Shown one piece after another: positions 3,531 through 32,508 of a stretch of DNA of 64,000 bases; positions within the stretch are counted from its first letter, which is position 1, and each line of letters begins with the position of its first letter. Both the position numbers and the translations under genes were made by a program. Source of the DNA: Nanobdellota archaeon (GTDB lineage: Archaea; Nanobdellota; Nanobdellia; Woesearchaeales; JAHIVG01); the NCBI GenBank assembly GCA_018816705.1, contig JAHIVG010000079.1, positions 8,064 to 72,063 on the forward strand. The letters are read 5' to 3'. Under the pieces are notes generated by a model. That model was not told the origin of the DNA. It saw only the letters and a list, made by a program, of their open reading frames with translations, and searched no databases.

Positions 3531-5144
3531 ATGATTTCGGAGCCAATGGCCACCTATTCCCTGTTCGGCAAGCCCATATCCGGCCCATTCACCATACCTT
3601 CAGGCATAGTCATGACCGAGGTGCCGGTCCTTGAGCGGATAGCCAACGAGATACCAGAGATCGGCATCCTCACAACCAAGAGCATCGGGCCAGAGCCCAA
3701 GGAAGGCAACCGCGAGCCGATATTGGCCCAGTATACGCCGTTCTCGTTCATAAACGCTGTGGGCCTGGCAAACCCGGGCTGCAAAGAGTTCGCTGAGAGA
3801 CTTAAGAAAGCGAAGATTCCCAAAGATAAGTTCCTGCTCGCATCAATCTTCGGCAGTACAGAACAGGATATCAAACACGTTGCCGGAACCCTTGTCAGTC
3901 TCGTGGATGGCTTCGAGCTCAACATATCCTGCCCGCATTCCAAGCGCTACGGGCAGGCCTGCGGCCAGGACCCGGAGCTGGTAGAGAAGCTTACCCATAC
4001 AGCTGCTTCCTTCGGAAAACCGGTCGTTGTGAAGATATCACCCAATCTAGACATGGAGACAACCATCAAAGCAGCGCTCGGAGGAGGGGCTCGGGGCTTT
4101 GTAGCCATAAACACCAAAGGCCCAACAGAGTTCAAAGTAGACGGGCACGATGTGCTGAGCAACAAACAAGGCGGGGTGTCAGGCAAAGCCATACTCAACC
4201 TTGGTATAGCCTGCGTGAAGAAGATAAGGCATCTGACAGACAAGCCCATAATCGCCTGCGGCGGAATCTCAACCGCAGAAGACATCAAACGATACAAGAA
4301 AGCCGGCGCAAGCTTCTTCGGCATAGGGTCAGCCCTGGCAGGGATGAATACGTCAGAGATGAAACTGTACTTCAAGGCCCTGAAGGGGGATTTTGAGACA
4401 GGCAGTGATGCTGCGCCAAGACATTTGAAGGAAACCAACATGAAATATGTCAAGTTCAAGATAGCAGAGAGGAGGCAGCTCGCAGACAACCTAATCCTGC
4501 TGAAGCTGGACAAGAACTACGACATCCAGCCCGGCCAGTTCATATTCGCCTGGATACCCGGAAAGGGAGAGAAGCCCTTTGCCATATTCGACGACGAGCC
4601 GGCCACACTGCTGTTCAAGCCGAGAGGGCGGTTCACAGACGAGCTGGCAAAGCTTAATCCAGGAGACCCATTATATATAAGGGGGCCGTACGGCAACCCG
4701 CTCAAGATACGAGGCAAGGCATTACTGGTGGTGGGGGGAACTGCGGTGGCCGCCCTTCACCTGCTCGCCAAAAGGAAACCAGACACGTGCCTGCTGGTGG
4801 GAGGGGAGGACAAGAAGCACCTCTCGTTCCTCAAGGAATTCCCGCTGGCATGCAAGGAAGTCAGCTGTGTCTCCGACGACGGAAGCTACGGCGAGAAAGG
4901 ACTGGTGACAGACATACTCGAGAGGCATATGCTCGCATTCAAGCCAGACATATGCATCAACTGCGGCCCTGAACAGATGCAACAGAAAGCCATCGAGATA
5001 GAGAAGAAGCACATCAAGCCAGAAAACATCCTGTCCTCCATAGAATACCAGACCATGTGCGGCAACGGCATCTGCGGACGGTGCGCAACACCGGCCGGGG
5101 AGAGGAGCTGTGTGGACGGGACGTTCTTCCCTTTGAAACACTAA
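3531..5144 (+). CDS. pyrD: Dihydroorotate dehydrogenase class 1B catalytic domain fused to its electron-transfer subunit (PyrD-PyrK in a single ORF)
   Basis: The N-terminal ~300 aa are a DHODH TIM barrel (GLANPG, NISCPHS, IACGGISTAEDI). The C-terminal ~250 aa are the PyrK FAD/NAD-binding fold with a 2Fe-2S Cys cluster (QTMCGNGICGRCA...SCVDG). The ORF is continuous with no stop between the domains. The ORF track starts at 3408, but a Met at 3531 (MISEPMATYS) fits better. Confidence 0.85.
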   Translation: MISEPMATYSLFGKPISGPFTIPSGIVMTEVPVLERIANEIPEIGILTTKSIGPEPKEGNREPILAQYTPFSFINAVGLANPGCKEFAERLKKAKIPKDKFLLASIFGSTEQDIKHVAGTLVSLVDGFELNISCPHSKRYGQACGQDPELVEKLTHTAASFGKPVVVKISPNLDMETTIKAALGGGARGFVAINTKGPTEFKVDGHDVLSNKQGGVSGKAILNLGIACVKKIRHLTDKPIIACGGISTAEDIKRYKKAGASFFGIGSALAGMNTSEMKLYFKALKGDFETGSDAAPRHLKETNMKYVKFKIAERRQLADNLILLKLDKNYDIQPGQFIFAWIPGKGEKPFAIFDDEPATLLFKPRGRFTDELAKLNPGDPLYIRGPYGNPLKIRGKALLVVGGTAVAALHLLAKRKPDTCLLVGGEDKKHLSFLKEFPLACKEVSCVSDDGSYGEKGLVTDILERHMLAFKPDICINCGPEQMQQKAIEIEKKHIKPENILSSIEYQTMCGNGICGRCATPAGERSCVDGTFFPLKH

Positions 5145-11187: not shown

Positions 11188-12620
<1,433 letters not shown>

Positions 12621-12726
12621 TCAATGAACATTCAGGCCTGACGACACCTTTTTAACGATTACCATTCTATAATGATACTAAAAGTTTTAATAGACTGTAA
12701 CTGTTGATTCACCTGGTGGTGAGGGA

Positions 12727-13470
12727 ATGTTTGGTTTCTTCAAGAAAGATAAGAATAAGGATGTCGGCCCGTTCGGTGAGTTAGACGCACCGCCAGCGCC
12801 GCCGCCCATCATGGAAGGGTACAAATCGGTCAGTATACAGCCACCACCCCAGTACGCTCCACCTCACCCGATGTCAGCAAAGGAGATGGGATTGCCCCTG
12901 CCTGATGCCGGTGCAGGCCCTGAAAAGCCCATGCTGCCTGATTTCATGGACGACAAGCCGATGGACCTGCACATACCAGAGCCTCAGAAAGCAGCAGCGC
13001 CATTCCATGAACTGCCTAGGCCGCCTGGACACGCGCATCCAGTACCCATACATCCGCCTCCCCATCCTCCGCCGCACCCGCCTCCCCATCCTAGAGCGAT
13101 GCGACACACAACGCATCTCCCACCGGTCCATGAGCTGCACAGAGAGGCTGAGCACTTTGATAACATATTGGACCAGCTCCCCCATATTCCTCCGGTACCA
13201 GAACCAGTCATGCCAGGTCCCCCGATGCCATACTTCGGGGGAAGGATTAGGCATGAAGGAGACATATTCGTGAATGTGAAAGAATACCGAAACATACTTG
13301 AGCACCTAACCGGCATGAAGTCAGGGCTGAAGGCATTCGACGAGACGGTGTTCCATTATGCTGAGCGACAGTCAAAAGAAGAGAACGAGCTGACAAAACT
13401 GCGAAGGGTCTTCGAAGACCTGCAACGAAAGTTTTTGCTCGCAGACAGCAAGCTGTTCGAATCAGGGTGA
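12727..13470 (+). CDS. Hypothetical protein: a Pro/His-rich N-terminal region (HPPPHPPPHPPPHP) followed by a coiled-coil C-terminal domain
   Basis: The C-terminal domain DIFVNVKEYRNILEHLTG...KLFE is paralogous to the next two ORFs. Confidence 0.5.
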   Translation: MFGFFKKDKNKDVGPFGELDAPPAPPPIMEGYKSVSIQPPPQYAPPHPMSAKEMGLPLPDAGAGPEKPMLPDFMDDKPMDLHIPEPQKAAAPFHELPRPPGHAHPVPIHPPPHPPPHPPPHPRAMRHTTHLPPVHELHREAEHFDNILDQLPHIPPVPEPVMPGPPMPYFGGRIRHEGDIFVNVKEYRNILEHLTGMKSGLKAFDETVFHYAERQSKEENELTKLRRVFEDLQRKFLLADSKLFESG

Positions 13471-13718
13471 TACCTATGAGAGAAGAGCATAAAGATGTTG
13501 CTCCGATTTTCGTGAAAATTGACGAGTACAAGGAGATTATTGAAATCATCAACTCGATCAAGGGCAAACTGGACGAAGGGAGAGCCACCATAAAGAAGAT
13601 AGAAGAGCTAAAATCGCACGAGGAAGCAGAGCTCGACCAGTGGCGGAACGAACTAGATGAAGTCCAGAGGAAGATGAGCTTCATCGACAAGACCTTGTTC
13701 GAGCCAGAAGGGTTATAG
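13467..13718 (+). CDS. Hypothetical coiled-coil protein, paralog 2 of the trio
   Basis: PIFVKIDEYKEIIEIINSIKGKL...TLFEPE. Its start overlaps the upstream stop (ATGA). Confidence 0.45.
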   Translation: MIPMREEHKDVAPIFVKIDEYKEIIEIINSIKGKLDEGRATIKKIEELKSHEEAELDQWRNELDEVQRKMSFIDKTLFEPEGL

Positions 13719-13719
13719 A

Positions 13720-14139
13720 ATGGAAAAGGACGAAGCAATATTCATCGGCGTCAGGGACCCAGTGGAGCTGAGGAAGGACATACTGGAGTCATCAAAAGCT
13801 GTGGTGACTTCCTTGAAGGCCTTCCAAGAACGCAAACGCATCCACGAAGAGAAGCTGACAGAGATGGCGAAGCTGAAGGGGGTGGGGAAAGAGCTCCAGA
13901 GGCTCACAGCCCAGCTGAGGATACACCTCCCCACGGCCAAGCTCTCATCGATAATTGAGCAGAAGCGAAAGATTGAATCCTTGCTGCCCCATGAGCAGCC
14001 GAAGCCGGTCAAGAAGCCCGTGAAGAAAGTGGACAGGCCGAAACCAAGACCTGCGCAGCCCACGAAGCCGAAGTCAGAGCTCGACAAGCTCGAAATCGAG
14101 CTCACAGATATCGAGAGCAAGCTCCGCGGATTGAGATAG
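13720..14139 (+). CDS. Hypothetical coiled-coil protein, paralog 3, with a Lys/Pro-rich C-terminus
   Basis: AIFIGVRDPVELRKDILESSKAV..., then a KPVKKPVKK tail. It starts 2 nt after the upstream stop. Confidence 0.45.
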   Translation: MEKDEAIFIGVRDPVELRKDILESSKAVVTSLKAFQERKRIHEEKLTEMAKLKGVGKELQRLTAQLRIHLPTAKLSSIIEQKRKIESLLPHEQPKPVKKPVKKVDRPKPRPAQPTKPKSELDKLEIELTDIESKLRGLR

Positions 14140-16435: not shown

Positions 16436-17362
16436 TCAAAGCGCAATCCTGCCAGGCCGGTAGGTCGTGGCCCGTTTCCAACTACTCTCAACAGCTTTCC
16501 GCAGATCCATGTCATTCTCAAGAATTTCATGCAATGGCACGGTCAGCTGTATCCTTCCAGTTGATGCCTCTGCCTTTGGGGTGAAGCCAGGTTTACCTAT
16601 CTTGATGACAAGATCAACAACATCTGAGACGCGTGCGCGACCTTTGGATTCATAAGCATCCCAATACATAACCCTGGATTCCATGTGCTGGTATCTCTCT
16701 AAATCTGATTCATCCTCCAATAAGCAGGTATACAAGCTTCTTGCAGTGCCTGCATTCGGATCATTTGAAGATGGGGATATTGACCTGCCTGCGTGCCTGT
16801 TCCAATCAAGCCCGAGATGAACTGATCTTGGGAAGGCCATCATTGTCCCGGGCGGGAGGTCTGGATACGCAATAGAGAGGTCGACAATCTTGCAATCCCC
16901 CTCCTGAATCGATGTGACATATATCAATCCAGTGGGTGATCCATCAGGGTTCTGTGAATATAATAGGTCTGGAAGCCCATCAGAACCAGGTACGTTACCA
17001 CCTTCCCCTCCCATGATGAAGTCATTCTTTTGTGTGGCGAGAAGATTGTTATCCTGCATCAATCTAAGGAGCACCCGTCCCACATTTTTCCTTGTAGGCT
17101 CATATCCGAACTCATCACAAAGCCGTTCAGCGATAGAAGTATAATTATCACCTGGGCGGATAGCAATCGAATAACCAAATCTGCTCATATAGCCACCAGG
17201 TGTCAGTTGGTGAGGTCCATTGATCTCTCCGGGTGTCCCAAAGACGATCTCATGCGGAATTGTATAGCCTCCCTCTGTCTGAATAATCGCCTGGGCAGCG
17301 GAAGGAACCGTCAAAGCAGCTGTAGTAGTTAAACCAATGATAAGACCTGTTTTTTTATCCAT
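16436..17362 (-). CDS. Secreted protein with an N-terminal signal/TM segment and a LysM-like motif
   Basis: N-terminus KKTGLIIGLTTTAALTVPSAAQA. The LysM-like stretch is YSIAIRPGDNYTSIAERL. Confidence 0.4.
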   Translation of the reverse strand: MDKKTGLIIGLTTTAALTVPSAAQAIIQTEGGYTIPHEIVFGTPGEINGPHQLTPGGYMSRFGYSIAIRPGDNYTSIAERLCDEFGYEPTRKNVGRVLLRLMQDNNLLATQKNDFIMGGEGGNVPGSDGLPDLLYSQNPDGSPTGLIYVTSIQEGDCKIVDLSIAYPDLPPGTMMAFPRSVHLGLDWNRHAGRSISPSSNDPNAGTARSLYTCLLEDESDLERYQHMESRVMYWDAYESKGRARVSDVVDLVIKIGKPGFTPKAEASTGRIQLTVPLHEILENDMDLRKAVESSWKRATTYRPGRIAL

Positions 17363-17475: not shown

Positions 17476-18090
17476 TCATCTAACTGCCGAGAGGATATCC
17501 TCGGCGACAGAAGGGTAATCGTCGAGGCCGATGGATTCGGTGTCGATTATAGTATGGGTCAGCTTGAGGATGTCATCTATCTCGAAGTGCTCGTTCGTTC
17601 TCCTGACCTGCTCCTCCAGATGAGGCCTGTCTTCGGGATCCATGCCCTTATGGTCCCGCATCCTTCGCTCGACCTGGGTGTCGAAGGAGCAGTCGAGCCC
17701 GACGATGTAGAGGCCTTTCTCCTTGAGATAGCTGACGTTCGATGCCTTGGAGATGTTGTCGATGACGTTCCTTGCATTGTCCTTGCGCGCAGCCAGGGCT
17801 ATCTCAGCCATTATGGTGCCGCCGTAAGCTTCGATTATCCTCTGGCCGATGTCGTCCATCTCTTCGCGATGAAATTCTCCGATCTCTTCAGGAGGATTGG
17901 TGACAGCAGCCAGGAATCCGGGTTTTGGCATTGCGAGAAGGTCGGGATGAGTATCCAGCAGGGAAAGAGGTGAATAAGCAGTGTATAAGGCCATGGGAAC
18001 ATAGTTTATGCCAGCGTCCTGGTTCCTCATGGCAATCGCCAGTGAGGTCTTGCCAGCGCCCATTCCGCCAATAAGTAGGATGTCTCTCAT
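17476..18090 (-). CDS. P-loop NTPase / nucleotide kinase-like protein
   Basis: Walker A LLIGGMGAGKTSLA near the N-terminus; ~200 aa kinase-sized. Confidence 0.5.
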   Translation of the reverse strand: MRDILLIGGMGAGKTSLAIAMRNQDAGINYVPMALYTAYSPLSLLDTHPDLLAMPKPGFLAAVTNPPEEIGEFHREEMDDIGQRIIEAYGGTIMAEIALAARKDNARNVIDNISKASNVSYLKEKGLYIVGLDCSFDTQVERRMRDHKGMDPEDRPHLEEQVRRTNEHFEIDDILKLTHTIIDTESIGLDDYPSVAEDILSAVR

Positions 18091-18137: not shown

Positions 18138-19003
18138 CTAGTTCACAGAATGCTCATAATATCCCCTGTACATGGATGAAGGGGTCTGCATCAAGACGTA
18201 ATCTGGATGAGTGGCGAGCAGGTGGTAGACGAGCATGTCGCTCATCGCATCGACGTCGTTTGTGAAGGCAGCATAAACATTATCATACGGGCCTTCCTGC
18301 TGCTCCAAGTAGAGCTTCTGGCCGTCAGCCAGCTCGTAAGACACCCTTTTCTCCAGCCCGTCGTAACCCTTGGATTTTTCTGTGCTCAATACTCCTTCAG
18401 GCAAAGCGTAAATATCCCTCCTCTCAGGATCTTTTGCGTCCTGGACAACAAGATAGGCCACCTTCTCTTCTATGCCTGACGGCGTATACAGCCGCTTGTT
18501 CTCTGGTTTCTCATGAGGATCATATCTAATCGCAGAGGGAGACTTTCCGTCCTTTCCGTACATCTGATATCTCCCCTCATATTTTTGCAGGGCTGGATCC
18601 TTCTTCTTGTCCTTGGGCTGAGCATAGCTCATCAGCGCAGCGACCGGATCAAGGGAGTCTGAGACATCCTTCCTTTCCTCCTGGCCCTGTTTCGGACCAG
18701 CATCACCACCCATCTCTTTCATCATCTCGAAGACGCGTGTGTTCTCCGAGTATAGCGACGAGTCCTCCTTCTCGACAGGACTCTTTTGCGGGCCGATTAT
18801 GGGTGAGCTGTGGGTTGCGAGCCAGGGCTGAGCGATCAGAAGGGCTTTCCAAGAGTTGGGTCTCGGAGCGTTCTCAGTGCCTCGATCATTCATCGGCTTC
18901 TGCCTGTCCTGTCTGAGACTCTTTTGAGTAAGAAGACCATTCAGTCCTTGGTAGCCCTGCTGCTGTCCAGGACTGTAGCTAGTATCATATGTGCTAATCA
19001 TAC
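18138..19003 (-). CDS. Hypothetical hydrophilic protein
   Basis: The ORF track runs to 19133, but that extension overlaps the repeat element. A start at MISTYD (about 19003) is more plausible. Charged and Lys-rich; no recognised motif. Confidence 0.4.
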
Positions 19004-19373: not shown

Positions 19374-20765
19374 CTATCTGCCCAGAAGGGTATCCCTCTT
19401 CTGATAGCAGGCATCGACGAAGGATGCTAGCTTGGGCATCATCTGCGGCTCGGGAGCGTCTGAGAATGCCAGGTCAACATACGGCAGTATCTTGTCAGCA
19501 GCTGAGCCAGCCCTCTCGCGTGCGTTCCTAATCAATGCTTGAGATACAGACGTGGCAACAGTCTCATGCATGCACTGCCAGGGCCCGACATGGCATATGC
19601 CGCTGATTGCGGCATCGCCCACAGGCCGGAAATGGCCCTCGATGAAGAGGTAAGTCGTGCCGACAGTGATCGGAGACTCACCCTCAATGGCGGTGTGGAA
19701 TATGCCTCGGTCCTCGGCTTTCTTCGAATAGTCGTAAGCGTCATGTATCTCCCTGCCCCTGAGAAGATCCTCGAAAGGCATCCAGAGAATGTCCTTCTGC
19801 TTGTTCATGTACCATCTATTGATACCCTTCTTGAAAACATCAATCAGCGAGGACGGATGCCTAAGGCTCATGGCCTGCTTCGCATCCTGGTAGTTCCAGC
19901 TGTTGACATAAAGGAACCATTCGGCTGTGGATGCGACAAGTGTCTCCAAAGGCCTGCTGAAAGAGCCCTCCAACAGCTTAGAGATATAGTGGTTGGCTCC
20001 CGGATGGAGCCTCATGAAGAATTCGCCGTTCACAAGAGCTATCGGGAACCGTCGGGAGCGGTCAAAGTCCACCTTTGACATCTCGGCAGCAGCAGTGTAC
20101 ATCGCGTCCTCAAGGCCGTGGCCGCCAGACCTGATCTCATCGCACAGATGACCGAGAAGCTCCTTGTACTTGAGCTCTCCGGCCGTGTTCCCGACTTCAG
20201 GCTTTTTCTCGTAAGGCCTGATCCTCAGCAGGGCATTATATAATATGTCCAGGGCGAAGATGCTCTTGAAAGCCAGCTTGACAAGATCGTCTCTCTGATC
20301 AGGAGGCAGGTCCAACTCAGAATAGTTGGTCTTGCCAGAAGGGCTGACAATAGGCACCCCCTCATACCCGTTGCTGTCGAGGATGAGCCTCATAACCTGT
20401 GTGTACTGCCCCTGCCTGCACGGACCCTCGGCAGTGGGCTGGAACAAGGCAAGCTCGTCCTGGCCATGCTTCTCTGATTTCTTCTCCAGCCAGGCCAGGG
20501 CATCACCTATCAGGATGCGGAAGGGCTCGCAGGTCTGGGTTATGACATTCTTCTCCGCAAGCCCGTAAGTGTGCTCGGTGCAGGTCTCTTCCATGACCTC
20601 AGCAGGGATGCCGACACCTTGCAAAGCGGCTGCAAGGCCGTAAGAGCTGTCACCTGAGTAAGGTATGCCCCACGTGCGCTCGTTGAGGTTGTCAGGCATA
20701 GGCCTTGAAGTGTCATACTTCTTATCGAGCCGCGCCTGCAAGCCGGATGAGTCTTCGGGTTTCAT
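19374..20765 (-). CDS. 2-hydroxyacyl-CoA dehydratase-like (HgdB/DUF2229-type) protein, partner of the upstream ATPase fusion
   Basis: 463 aa. It overlaps the upstream gene by 4 nt. In clostridial 'CoA-substrate-specific enzyme activase' proteins this domain is fused to the ATPase modules. Confidence 0.65.
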   Translation of the reverse strand: MKPEDSSGLQARLDKKYDTSRPMPDNLNERTWGIPYSGDSSYGLAAALQGVGIPAEVMEETCTEHTYGLAEKNVITQTCEPFRILIGDALAWLEKKSEKHGQDELALFQPTAEGPCRQGQYTQVMRLILDSNGYEGVPIVSPSGKTNYSELDLPPDQRDDLVKLAFKSIFALDILYNALLRIRPYEKKPEVGNTAGELKYKELLGHLCDEIRSGGHGLEDAMYTAAAEMSKVDFDRSRRFPIALVNGEFFMRLHPGANHYISKLLEGSFSRPLETLVASTAEWFLYVNSWNYQDAKQAMSLRHPSSLIDVFKKGINRWYMNKQKDILWMPFEDLLRGREIHDAYDYSKKAEDRGIFHTAIEGESPITVGTTYLFIEGHFRPVGDAAISGICHVGPWQCMHETVATSVSQALIRNARERAGSAADKILPYVDLAFSDAPEPQMMPKLASFVDACYQKRDTLLGR

Positions 20766-24118: not shown

Positions 24119-25501
24119 TTGGAGACCCCATACAAACATTTAAAAGCACTGGACCTCAGTTGTCCAGGCATGGCAGAAATCATCACCCTGGGCGGATACA
24201 ATGAGGTAGGCAAGAACCTGACAGCAGTCAAGGTGGGAAAGCAGGTCGTGATATTCGACATGGGCCTGCACCTGGAGAACTACATAAGGGTGGCCGAGGA
24301 CGAAGACATCATAAACCTCAAGGCCAAGATGCTCATCGACGAAGGTGCGGTACCGGACATAGACCAACTGGGAGAATGGAAAAAGCAGGCAGGCTACATA
24401 ATCCCAACACACGCGCACCTCGACCATATAGGAGCCATACCATTCCTCGGAAACCAGTTCAAGGCCAACCTCATATTCACGCCGTACAGCGCAGCAGTGC
24501 TGAACGCGAACATCAAGAACGAGGGCATGAAGCTCAGCAACAAGCAGACCATACTGAACGTGAACGGCAGCATCCCTCTCAAGGACGGCCTGAGGCTGGA
24601 GTTCATAAACGTCACGCACAGCACGCCGCAGACAGTGATGGCGGCGCTGCACACACCAGAAGGCGTGATACTCTACGCGAACGATTTCAAGTTCGACATG
24701 TACCCTACTTTGGGCAAGAAGCCCAACTTCAAGCGCCTCGAAGAGCTAGGCAAGGAAGGGGTGCTGGCACTGATATGCGATTCAACCTACGCGAATTATG
24801 CCCAGAAGACACCGTCAGAATCAGTTGCCAAAGAGATGCTGAGAGATGTCATGATAGGCACGCAGACAAAGGGAAAATGCATAATCGTGACGACCTTCTC
24901 CAGCCATCTGGCGAGGCTGAAATCCATAATCGAATTCGGGAAGAAGCTCAACAGGAGGATAGTCTTCCTCGGACGGTCACTTGCCAAGTATTCTCTCGCC
25001 GGGGAAGACATCGGTATAGTCAACTTCTCCAAGGAAGCAGAGATCGTCAAGTACAGCAGCAAGATAAAACGGAAGCTGAAGACTGTGATGGCAGATGGCA
25101 AGGAAAAATACATGCTGGTGGTCACTGGTCATCAAGGAGAACCAAAGGCGACCCTGTCAAAGATGGCCTCAGGAGAGCTCGGGTTCAGGTTCGACAAGGA
25201 AGACCACGTAATATTCTCATGCAAGACCATCCCATCTAAGACCAATATCGAGAACAGGACAAGGCTCGAGAACGAACTGAAGGACTTCGACGTCAGGCTC
25301 TTTACAGATATACACGTGAGCGGCCACGCGGCAAGAGAGGATCTCAGGGACCTGATTCACCTGGTGAAGCCGAAACATATCATACCTGCGCACGGCGAGA
25401 GGAACATGACCCTCGGCCTGATCAACCTGGCAGAGACATTAGGATATTCAAAGGGGGAGACAGCGCATCATATGAAGAACGGTGGCAGGCTAAGGCTCTG
25501 A
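24119..25501 (+). CDS. rnj: Ribonuclease J (beta-CASP metallo-beta-lactamase RNase)
   Basis: THAHLDHIG metal motif, a beta-CASP domain and the C-terminal HVSGHA...PAHGE. Confidence 0.85.
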   Translation: METPYKHLKALDLSCPGMAEIITLGGYNEVGKNLTAVKVGKQVVIFDMGLHLENYIRVAEDEDIINLKAKMLIDEGAVPDIDQLGEWKKQAGYIIPTHAHLDHIGAIPFLGNQFKANLIFTPYSAAVLNANIKNEGMKLSNKQTILNVNGSIPLKDGLRLEFINVTHSTPQTVMAALHTPEGVILYANDFKFDMYPTLGKKPNFKRLEELGKEGVLALICDSTYANYAQKTPSESVAKEMLRDVMIGTQTKGKCIIVTTFSSHLARLKSIIEFGKKLNRRIVFLGRSLAKYSLAGEDIGIVNFSKEAEIVKYSSKIKRKLKTVMADGKEKYMLVVTGHQGEPKATLSKMASGELGFRFDKEDHVIFSCKTIPSKTNIENRTRLENELKDFDVRLFTDIHVSGHAAREDLRDLIHLVKPKHIIPAHGERNMTLGLINLAETLGYSKGETAHHMKNGGRLRL

Positions 25502-30684: not shown

Positions 30685-32508
30685 ATGGAACCAGAAAACA
30701 CTCACAAGATGGTGCCGGACACTTCTGTATTGGTCGATGCCGCGGTATCAAAGAAGATAAGCAAGGGCGATATCGCCCCGGAAGAGATCATCATCCACGA
30801 AGCGGTCATCGCAGAGCTGGAGCACATGGCCAATGAGAACAAGGCCATAGGCTTCTTAGGCCTGGACGAGATCGGAAGGATAAAGGAGCTCTCAGAAGAG
30901 AAAGGCTTCAAGATACGCTTCGGCGGCAGGAGACCGACGCTGAGAGAGGTCAGGGAATCATCCTTAGGTGAGATAGACGCCCTGATACGCGACCTCGCCT
31001 TCGACGAGAGCGCAACACTGATCACAGCAGACAAGGTCCAGGCAAAGGTGGCCAAGACAAAGGGCATCCCCGTACTGTTCATCGAGCAAAGCCAGACAAA
31101 GAAGAAGCTGGAGCTGGACAAATACTTCGACAAGACCACGATGTCAGTGCACCTCAGGGAGAACGTGCCCCCATACGCGAAGAAAGGCGTTCCGGGCAGC
31201 TGGCAGTTCGTCAAGGTAAAAGATGATTTGCTCAAGCAGGAAGAGATACAGGACATATCCAGGGAGATAATCGAGGAAGCCGGTCACCGCCGTGACGGAT
31301 TCATAGAGATAGAACGGCCAGGCAGCACGATCGCCCAGTTAGGAAGCTATAGGATAACCATCACAAGGCCGCCGTTCAGCGACGGATGGGAGATAACGGC
31401 TGTGAGGCCGGTCAAGAGGATGGGACTCAGCGATTACAAGCTGAGCGAGAAATTGCAGGCAAGGATAAGCGAACAGGCAGAGGGAGTGCTGATAGCAGGC
31501 TCTCCAGGGCACGGCAAGAGCACATTCGCCCAGGCGCTCGCAGAGTTCTACGCATCGAAAGGGAGGATTGTCAAGACGATCGAGGCCCCGAGAGACCTGG
31601 TGCTGCCGGAGACAATCACCCAGTATGCGATAAGCCACGGCACGCAGGAAGAGATACACGACATACTGCTGCTCTGCAGGCCAGACTACACCCTGTTCGA
31701 CGAGATGCGCAACACGAACGATTTCAGGCTCTTTGCAGACCTCAGGCTGTCAGGCATAGGCCTGGCAGGTGTGGTGCACGCGACGAATCCCATCGACGCG
31801 ATCCAGAGGTTCGTCGGCAGGATCGAGCTCGGCGTGATACCCCAAGTGATAGACACTGTGATATTCATAAAGAATGGGGCAGTGGACAAGGTCCTGGCCC
31901 TGAAAATGATGGTCAAGGTACCGTCAGGCATGACAGAAGCCGATCTCGCAAGGCCGGTAGTCGTCGTGAACGACTTTGAGACCGACCGCCTGGAGTTCGA
32001 GCTGTACAGCTACGGTGAAGAGACCGTCGTCGTCCCAGTGGGAAAAGATGAAGGGGCTAGCAGCCCAGCAAAGACACTGGCCTCAAAGACAATCGCGGAT
32101 GAACTGCACAAGCACGTGGAGCACGTCGAGGTCGAGATGGTCAGCGACCACAAATGCATAGTACGGGTGCCGGAGCACAGGATAGCCAAGATAATCGGCC
32201 GTGGCGGAGAGAACATAACACAGCTTGAGAGGAAGCTCGGCATAAGGATAGACGTGCAGCCCCTGGAGGAAGAGAAGGGCGGGCAGACAGTGCAGCCCGT
32301 CGAGACAAATGTATCGAAGAAATTCATCCTCTTCAACCTGGGAGGCAAGTACAGCAACCGGGACGTGCACATATTCATCGACAACGACTTTGTGCTCACG
32401 GCCAAGGCAGGCAAGACAGGGCTGATAAGGATCAAGCGCAACAACAAGATGGGGCAAGTCCTCACAGAAGCCATCAACACGAAAGAAAGGCTGGAGTTCA
32501 GGCTGTAA
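30685..32508 (+). CDS. PIN-domain / PilT-type ATPase / KH-domain protein (PINA-like)
   Basis: N-terminal PIN domain, central ATPase with Walker A GSPGHGKST, C-terminal KH domain (IAKIIGRGGENITQLERKLG). Confidence 0.75.
   Translation: MEPENTHKMVPDTSVLVDAAVSKKISKGDIAPEEIIIHEAVIAELEHMANENKAIGFLGLDEIGRIKELSEEKGFKIRFGGRRPTLREVRESSLGEIDALIRDLAFDESATLITADKVQAKVAKTKGIPVLFIEQSQTKKKLELDKYFDKTTMSVHLRENVPPYAKKGVPGSWQFVKVKDDLLKQEEIQDISREIIEEAGHRRDGFIEIERPGSTIAQLGSYRITITRPPFSDGWEITAVRPVKRMGLSDYKLSEKLQARISEQAEGVLIAGSPGHGKSTFAQALAEFYASKGRIVKTIEAPRDLVLPETITQYAISHGTQEEIHDILLLCRPDYTLFDEMRNTNDFRLFADLRLSGIGLAGVVHATNPIDAIQRFVGRIELGVIPQVIDTVIFIKNGAVDKVLALKMMVKVPSGMTEADLARPVVVVNDFETDRLEFELYSYGEETVVVPVGKDEGASSPAKTLASKTIADELHKHVEHVEVEMVSDHKCIVRVPEHRIAKIIGRGGENITQLERKLGIRIDVQPLEEEKGGQTVQPVETNVSKKFILFNLGGKYSNRDVHIFIDNDFVLTAKAGKTGLIRIKRNNKMGQVLTEAINTKERLEFRL

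Follow-up and report, generated by a model that had tools for sequence, protein, structure and literature searches.

The 64,000-nucleotide window analysed here, from contig JAHIVG010000079.1 of a Nanobdellota archaeon (assembly GCA_018816705.1), carries three consecutive genes on the same strand at positions 12727-14139, designated g1, g2 and g3, which form a lineage-specific operon of Woesearchaeota and Nanoarchaeota (DPANN). The families encoded by this triad are new, having no Pfam or NCBIfam model, no structural relative and no description in the literature, and their architecture is a variant of the known anchor-spacer-assembly scaffolds. The C-terminal part of g1 and the whole of g2 are, judged by their sequences, clear paralogs, and g3 is a probable, diverged relative. 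It is tentatively suggested that the three proteins would be subunits of one peripheral-membrane coiled-coil scaffold, a possibility that falls short of being probable.

Conservation of the gene triad

An exhaustive profile search against 1.84 billion cluster representatives (50% identity) returned 3,147 representatives at E ≤ 1e-3 and 920 at E ≤ 1e-10. Two architectures were found among these matches: a stand-alone form of around 75 aa, and a form of 100-390 aa that bears the module at its extreme C-terminus, the long g1-like architecture being seen in 37 of the top 150 matches. Matches with a name were called "hypothetical" or given an inconsistent generic coiled-coil label, and all came from Woesearchaeota or Nanoarchaeota. 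A scan of the GTDB species representatives, with an 11-sequence alignment as the query, confirmed 132 relatives, from which 80 loci were kept. These belong to Woesearchaeota, Nanoarchaeota, Nanobdellota or archaeal metagenome-assembled genomes; some are titled "uncultured Methanosarcinales", which is taken as a placeholder. No relatives of the triad proteins were found on the viral contigs of IMG/VR.

Gene order was counted over 82 non-redundant Woesearchaeota/Nanoarchaeota loci centred on g2, and all neighbourhood counts below refer to this set. At 73 loci the gene immediately upstream of g2 is of the g1 type, and at around 75 the one immediately downstream is of the g3 type. The median spacer is 6 nt at both junctions, and spacers of 20 nt or less separate g1 from g2 in 67 of 73 cases and g2 from g3 in 67 of 75. 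The next most conserved neighbour after the triad occurs at only 48 loci and is not in this window. The order g1-g2-g3 is thus conserved far beyond chance, since it recurs in around 75 of 82 independent genomes, and the original prediction of a compact operon of related helical proteins was borne out by this adjacency and by the short spacers. At the level of the individual families, a hidden Markov model (HMM) of the g2 family recognized g2 of the window at E=3.1e-32 and g1 at E=3.5e-9. The g3 family forms a single cluster of 80 members, 74 of which were aligned, g3 of the window aligning over its full length with 73 orthologues.

In the window itself, the three open reading frames (ORFs) were found as a tandem trio where they had been predicted, with junctions that differ from those first proposed. 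The g1 stop codon TGA occupies 13468-13470 and the g2 ATG begins at 13476, leaving a 5-nt spacer. Were translation to start at the in-frame GTG at 13467 instead, start and g1 stop would overlap in a GTGA; the ATG was preferred because it yields a protein of 80 aa that is 100% identical to a public database entry (P0001) and is preceded by a Shine-Dalgarno (SD)-like GGGTGAT. The g2 stop codon TAG (13716-13718) is followed after a single nucleotide by the g3 ATG at 13720. The ATGA-type overlap of stops and starts that had been proposed is therefore absent from both junctions. Purine runs resembling an SD sequence also stand ahead of g1 (GGTGGTGAGGG) and g3 (AGAAGGGT). A scan for bacterial-type promoters and terminators gave nothing usable, the host being an archaeon.

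Relationship and predicted structure of the three proteins

The C-terminal 70 or so residues of g1 align with g2 free of gaps at 35% identity over 69 aa (BLASTP, E=3e-12), and comparison of the family profiles by hhalign scored 99.8% (E=8.6e-28). Both begin their common domain with IFV(N/K)(V/I)(K/D)EY and end it with LFE, and across the family the motif [PV]-[IVL]-F-V-K-[IV]-[DE]-x-Y-K ... L-K-x-x-E-D-x-E-[LF]-x-x-W ... D-K-T-L-F-E is of constant length. For g3 the scores are lower. BLASTP matched it to the g1 C-terminus at E=5e-5 and gave no significant match to g2; in hhalign the g3 core scored 72% (E=3.5e-5) with the g1 C-terminus and 5.7% with g2, and the g2 HMM reached the g3 proteins of three loci (L017, L068 and L079) at around 1e-4. 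The LFE ending is missing from g3. It had been proposed that all three genes are paralogs with one common domain: this held for the g1 C-terminus and g2, and for g3 the kinship is probable rather than secure, because the scores are weak and coiled-coil composition inflates scores of this kind. The terminal helix of g3 resembles the C-terminal half of g2 in the profile comparison.

In each module a short strand leads into a helix of about 57 residues that has heptad periodicity. In the AlphaFold2 (AF2) models, g2 is a single helix from residue 15 to 75 (61 residues; predicted local distance difference test score, pLDDT, 86.5) with the segment PIFVKID ahead of it, and g3 comprises helices at 14-69 (56 residues), 75-88 and 120-138 with disorder at 89-119; monomer predictions of this kind call for caution where coiled coils are concerned. 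In the column profiles, the 3-4 spacing of hydrophobic residues runs unbroken through the modules except for one conserved charged break in mid-helix, which reads LKxxEDxEL in g2, KxxEDKEFEKW in g1 and FKxxRxEK in g3. The coiled-coil character assigned at the outset is supported by these long helices and by their periodicity.

The modules also differ in charge. The g2 proteins are net negative in 68 of 69 members (98.6%), with a median of -6; 97% of the cores in 74 g3 members carry a net positive charge (median +5); and the g1 module is near-neutral, at about -1. A heterotrimer of the three proteins, with support from this charge complementarity, is plausible.

Family-wide features of g1 and g3

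The hydrophobic-then-polybasic motif at the N-terminus of g1 was present in 82 of 106 long forms, and no transmembrane or signal-peptide stretch could be read from the sequences of g1, g2 or g3. Between this motif and the module lies a spacer that is rich in proline throughout the family (median Pro fraction 0.17; 19% Pro over the whole of g1 in the window), with total g1 length reaching 416 aa. A motif of the type L[DE][IV]PP[AP]P falls within the first 60 aa of 46 of the 106 long forms, and [DE]LP[SE]FP is also frequent. Cysteine is rare in the g1 proteins (median count 0), and no g1 has a CxxC...[HC] pattern.

A tract of (HPPP)n in the spacer had been singled out as a potential metal-binding feature. 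It is indeed present, at g1 residues 109-122, but it is private to this genome and is no functional hallmark: it was found neither in the closest orthologues (L006, L005 and L002) nor in the other retrieved homologues, and Tandem Repeats Finder (TRF) detected no repeat at the DNA level. The metal-binding interpretation was rejected on this lack of conservation. The tract is a lineage-specific quirk of a fast-evolving spacer, of which the conserved property is the richness in proline.

For g3, the 74-member alignment gives the core consensus FFVGxxDPxExRRxxLESxK...LP, and the columns conserved at 90% or more (L22, K45, L52, L66, P71, L124, E125, L128, E132 and L135) fall in both the core and the terminal helix. 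The linker between them varies in length and sequence. The KPVKKPVKK segment, originally described as a basic tail, lies inside this disordered linker, and the protein in fact ends in the helix SELDKLEIELTDIESKLRGLR. Beneath the segment, TRF found a 12-nt tandem repeat (window 14001-14027, 2.2 copies, consensus GAAGCCCGTCAA), which points to slippage-driven variation in linker length. Lys-rich N-terminal extensions with a net charge of at least +4 occur in 19 of 69 g3 members, reaching +23 at locus L011, and in one orthologue (L023:8245-8757, + strand) the basic linker is interrupted by a canonical C2H2 zinc finger, FKCDRCDKEFKSRQSLTKHHKLH. These polycationic arms and the zinc-finger insertion suggest that g3 may bind nucleic acid.

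Comparison with known families

The statement that the domain matches no named family was supported by the profile and structure searches. Scans of g1, g2 and g3 against Pfam, NCBIfam, PADLOC and PHROGs returned sub-threshold coiled-coil noise only (CEP63, OVT1, ERM_helical, LmuB). Pfam scans of 74 g3 and 69 g2 members individually, at E ≤ 1, gave no recurrent meaningful family, the top ones being NPV_P10, MtrG, Med9 and AATF-Che1. Sequence-profile searches of the PDB reached best E-values of 0.058-0.076 (tubulin chaperone A and a designed spike mimic), and Foldseek searches of the PDB with the g2 and g3 AF2 models gave nothing at E ≤ 0.001, as expected given that the models are single helices. 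No description of the triad family was found in the literature. The labels carried by relatives (a JGI label "CdvB" on the g2 orthologue P0007, and "TOPRIM nuclease" and "SlyX" on others) are inconsistent generic coiled-coil annotations.

Prefoldin, ESCRT-III/Snf7 and PspA had been named beforehand as the assignments that would overturn the claim of novelty, and none was matched by profile. For ESCRT-III/Snf7 (PF03357), g1, g2 and g3 gave no match at E ≤ 1 and the family is not among the 25 most recurrent in the 74 g3 and 69 g2 members; in place of its alpha1-alpha2 hairpin core the AF2 monomers show an uninterrupted helix (g2 15-75, g3 14-69). PspA/Vipp1 was rejected on the lack of any PspA_IM30 (PF04012) match in the window proteins or in the same recurrent families. 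Prefoldin gave no Pfam or NCBIfam match and only one in the PDB (1fxk_C, E=1.1), and the AF2 models have no central beta-hairpin. SepF (PF04472) gave no profile match, and the g1 module aligns gap-free with g2, which is predicted to be a single helix. CdpC (DUF7093-type) was rejected in view of the zinc fingers that it requires in both terminal domains and of the cysteine-poor g1.

The most position-specific of the weak matches is to the N-terminal region of MtrG (PF04210), which is similar, below threshold, to the strand and helix start of g2 (residues 11-34) in 23 of 69 g2 members, the best at E=2.8e-4. The g2 of the window scored 11.8 bits against a curated cut-off of 27, in a genomic context that is unrelated. 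MtrG, unlike g2, has a transmembrane helix at its C-terminus. This match is probably due to chance or composition.

A possible membrane-tethered scaffold

Given the strict co-linearity of the genes, the equal length of their modules and the conserved acid/base split, it may be that the modules form one hetero-oligomeric coiled coil. Each protein would contribute one block, a strand of 5-6 residues and a helix of about eight heptads, and the blocks would zip in register, with the acidic g2 helix pairing with the basic g3 core and the near-neutral g1 helix serving as the third strand. The bundle would hang from the cytoplasmic face of the membrane by the hydrophobic-plus-polylysine motif of g1 and its flexible, Pro-rich spacer, and the disordered, Lys-rich arms of g3 would bind a polyanion, most likely nucleic acid. 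The g3 terminal helix could dock on a neighbouring bundle, since it resembles half of the g1/g2 module, and complexes would in this way be linked into a network. We infer such co-assembly, membrane and nucleic-acid binding, network formation and a cellular role for the triad; the role would most likely be that of a cell-cycle scaffold coupling the nucleoid or the division machinery to the membrane. The genes found near the triad in many genomes, ScpB (45 loci), PCNA (36), GyrA (18) and PRC-barrel proteins (10), lend a support to the scaffold role that is suggestive but weak; RNase J, at 40 loci, is the other recurrent neighbour.

Several points weigh against this scaffold. The helical hydrophobic moment of the g1 N-terminal motif is 0.27 compared with 0.32 in shuffled sequences; membrane binding by g1 is thus proposed on its hydrophobic and polybasic composition and by analogy, not on amphipathicity, and the motif could instead be a protein-binding peptide. 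For Lys-rich segments such as those of g3, acidic lipids and RNA are ligands as likely as DNA. The kinship of g3 with the g1/g2 module is weak (the g3 core scored 5.7% with the g2 profile) in a comparison that coiled-coil composition can inflate. The recurrent neighbours are on the opposite strand or kilobases away, are missing from the close relatives and, save for RNase J, from this window, and could reflect plain synteny within one order. No FtsZ-type or AAA-type (Walker-A) signature was found within 8 kb of the triad at the 82 loci, nor an AAA Walker-A signature anywhere in the window.

Four known systems resemble parts of the proposed scaffold; for SepF, CdpC and Noc membrane anchoring has been demonstrated by experiment, and the likeness of g1 to them speaks for the scaffold. 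SepF has a membrane-binding helix (residues 1-12), a flexible linker and a C-terminal core for interaction or oligomerisation (PMC8178401), and g1, with its putative membrane motif, has the same three-part layout; it differs in that the SepF core is alpha/beta whereas that of g1 is a single heptad helix, in its much longer, Pro-rich spacer and in having two dedicated partner genes. In CdpC (HVO_0399), the haloarchaeal FtsZ1 anchor, a membrane-binding element at the N-terminus is joined to a conserved binding domain at the C-terminus by a long disordered linker that evolves fast, and the zinc fingers in its N- and C-terminal domains are indispensable (10.64898/2026.07.16.738847). It is archaeal and laid out like g1, but there is no sequence similarity and g1 lacks the zinc-finger pattern. 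PopZ, the polar organiser of Caulobacter, starts with a short helix, continues as a disordered region that is acidic and rich in proline (23-29% Pro) and ends in a helical domain whose oligomerisation builds a scaffold (PMC9512792). The family spacer of g1, with its median of 17% Pro, is comparable, and g1 is acidic overall; however, the N-terminus of PopZ binds client proteins and lacks a polybasic character, the product of a single gene assembles with itself, and this bacterial protein has no homology to g1. Noc, the nucleoid occlusion factor of Bacillus, has a weak N-terminal membrane motif and a DNA-binding part and, once oligomerised, recruits DNA to the membrane (PMC4331003). A functional analogy with the triad is proposed, and the layout of the N-terminal motif is similar. 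Noc is, however, one protein, a CTPase of the ParB family that has a specific DNA site, whereas the triad would split these activities between g1 and g3 and connect them through the coiled coil, the DNA binding of g3 being itself putative.

The scaffold can also be cast in a more specific form, as a DPANN-specific cell-cycle machine not recognised before, an acid-base heterotrimer that would connect the nucleoid, through the g3 arms, to the membrane, through g1, would polymerise by donation of the g3 terminal helix and would replace organisers of the Noc, PopZ or MinD type in very small episymbiotic archaea. In this detailed form the proposal is speculative and should be regarded as doubtful.

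Alternative explanations

One alternative is that the triad is a divisome anchor or regulator in which g1, by a membrane-binding N-terminus and a flexible spacer, acts like SepF, CdpC or ZipA and its C-terminal module, with g2 and g3, binds FtsZ filaments and organises them. The three-part architecture is that of SepF and CdpC, FtsZ is used together with SepF in DPANN archaea (PMC8178401), and a CdpB-like PRC-barrel protein is encoded about 4.8 kb away at 10 loci. On the other side, SepF generally co-occurs with FtsZ in archaea (PMC8178401), so that an anchor is probably already present. There is no relation to SepF or CdpC in sequence or fold, no Pfam match and, with a median of zero, hardly any cysteine in g1; the missing ftsZ signatures near the triad also count against such a role, which would leave the polycationic arms of g3 without explanation. 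A divisome anchor is considered unlikely.

The triad may otherwise encode three independent homo-oligomeric coiled-coil proteins, either cytoskeletal or filament-forming, like coiled-coil-rich or intermediate-filament-like proteins, or prefoldin-like chaperones, that are co-transcribed without forming a hetero-complex. All three proteins are mostly helical, and weak, generic coiled-coil matches were obtained to crescentin, tropomyosin and prefoldin (E of about 0.2-1). The acid/base split between g2 and g3 and the almost invariable adjacency of the three genes speak against such independence; helices of about eight heptads are short for filament formers, and prefoldin lacks support from both the profiles and the AF2 models, as described above. 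There is perhaps a small chance that this explanation is right.

A third alternative is an RNA- or ribosome-associated factor, with g3 binding RNA and the complex localising RNA processing or translation at the membrane. The Lys-rich arms of g3 would suit this function, and no gene is met more often than RNase J downstream of the triad on the same strand, RNase J being also the sole conserved neighbour in the window. RNase J is nevertheless 1-11 kb distant and never adjacent, no RNA-binding domain was recognized, and the only inserted domain seen in the family, a C2H2 finger, is of a kind that binds DNA more often. An RNA-associated function is quite improbable.

Least likely is a membrane-remodelling set of the ESCRT-III/PspA type, in which the g3 C-terminal helix might recruit a MIT-domain ATPase: the "CdvB (Snf7/Vps24/ESCRT-III family)" label of P0007 and, in the alignments, the g1 N-terminus MxxLFGKKK and the MIM1-like spacing LxxIExKLxxL[K/R] of g3, which resemble the N-termini of eukaryotic ESCRT-III proteins and the MIM1 consensus, are outweighed by the lack of Snf7 and PspA_IM30 among the recurrent families, by long single helices in place of a hairpin, by the position of the g1 module behind 100-300 disordered residues, by the missing AAA Walker-A signature in the window and at the 82 loci, and by the fact that MIM1 spacing fits any heptad helix. 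In addition, the introduction of one study lists Cdv proteins in three of the four archaeal superphyla and names Euryarchaeota and Asgard there, but not DPANN (PMC8970359).

Features and neighbouring genes

The features of the triad are listed in Table 1.

Table 1. Positions of the triad genes and of their sequence features in the window.
Feature	Position	Strand or location	Description
g1	12727-13470	+	ORF, 247 aa; N-terminal motif, Pro-rich spacer, C-terminal strand-plus-helix module
g2	13476-13718	+	ORF, 80 aa; module alone; acidic, isoelectric point (pI) 4.85, net charge -7
g3	13720-14139	+	ORF, 139 aa; basic, pI 9.9, net charge +11
Intergenic region, pyrB to g1 (divergent)	12555-12726		Read off the sequence
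TATA-like TTTTAATA	12685-12692	upstream of g1	Putative; read off the sequence
SD-like GGTGGTGAGGG	12715-12725	upstream of g1	Putative; read off the sequence
g1 N-terminal hydrophobic-then-polybasic motif MFGFFKKDKNK	12727-12759	+	Family consensus M-G-[FLW]-[LF]-x-[LF]-[LF]-K-K-K
g1 Pro-rich low-complexity spacer	12760-13260	+	Composition
LDAPPAPPP, semi-conserved motif in g1 spacer	12781-12807	+	Sequence
HPPP tract HPPPHPPPHPPPHP, g1 residues 109-122	13051-13092	+	Sequence
g1 C-terminal module DIFVNVKEY...KLFESG	13261-13467	+	Short strand, then long heptad helix; BLASTP/hhalign against g2
g3 core AIFIGVRDP...RIHLP	13735-13932	+	Strand and 56-residue helix ending at conserved LP; basic
g3 disordered Lys/Pro-rich linker	13990-14073	+	pLDDT <50 for residues 92-113
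KPVKKPVKK inside linker, g3 residues 95-103	14002-14028	+	Sequence
g3 conserved three-heptad terminal helix SELDKLEIELTDIESKLRGLR	14074-14136	+	Consensus ELxKLExELxxIExKLxxL; AF2 helix 120-138

Upstream of g1 and divergent from it lie pyrB, as had been stated and as its OTCace_N/OTCace domains bear out, and pyrI (PyrI/PyrI_C). This adjacency is incidental, being common to the close relatives L002 and L005 only and missing at most loci. Downstream of the triad are genes for a ribulose-phosphate 3-epimerase and a thioredoxin-reductase-like flavoprotein. The only recurrent triad neighbour kept in the window is an RNase J-type beta-CASP nuclease (24170-25501, + strand) about 10 kb downstream.

At 45-48 of the 82 loci the triad is divergent from a conserved block encoding a surface protein of around 626 aa with a lamin-tail domain (LTD), a 199-aa protein and ScpB; examples of genes in this block are L031:2625-3458(-), L055:2762-3361(-) and L054:5437-7317(-). 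The 199-aa protein has a C-terminal end resembling a winged helix-turn-helix and no Pfam match, and it might be a divergent kleisin (ScpA), as it adjoins ScpB. At locus L030 (12548-12835, - strand) and nine others, a gene about 4.8 kb downstream of the triad encodes a PRC-barrel protein of 96 aa (PF05239, scored at 22.1 bits with a cut-off of 21.2) that is similar to the archaeal division proteins CdpB1/2.

Elsewhere in the window, a gene for an MCM helicase (597-2627, - strand) lies at the edge of the wider region. The 537-aa ORF at 3531-5144 (+ strand) has a dihydroorotate dehydrogenase domain at residues 8-270 and a C-terminal half without assignment, so that a fusion or a missed gene boundary is indicated. 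The segment 20762-24004 (- strand) encodes a protein of 1,080 aa, of the CoA-enzyme activase type, in which BcrAD_BadFG ATPase repeats are fused with DUF2229; four ORFs (19374-20765, 18138-19001, 17476-18090 and 16436-17362) with no Pfam match at E ≤ 1e-4 come after it on that strand. In a 607-aa protein at 30685-32508 (+ strand), a PIN domain occurs together with a T2SSE-like ATPase region and KH domains.

Significance for DPANN archaea

The Woesearchaeota and their relatives are abundant, uncultivated archaea with reduced genomes, and their cell biology is almost unknown. Of the "hypothetical" gene sets in this lineage, the triad belongs to those with the more consistent conservation, its order being fixed in around 90% of the sampled species. 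Definition of the domain is warranted even without a function, as it would group thousands of "hypothetical proteins". If the proteins do form a membrane-tethered scaffold that organises the nucleoid or division, the triad would add a naturally occurring three-gene acid/base coiled-coil system and would show how spatial organisation is achieved in DPANN archaea without the known bacterial or haloarchaeal adaptors.

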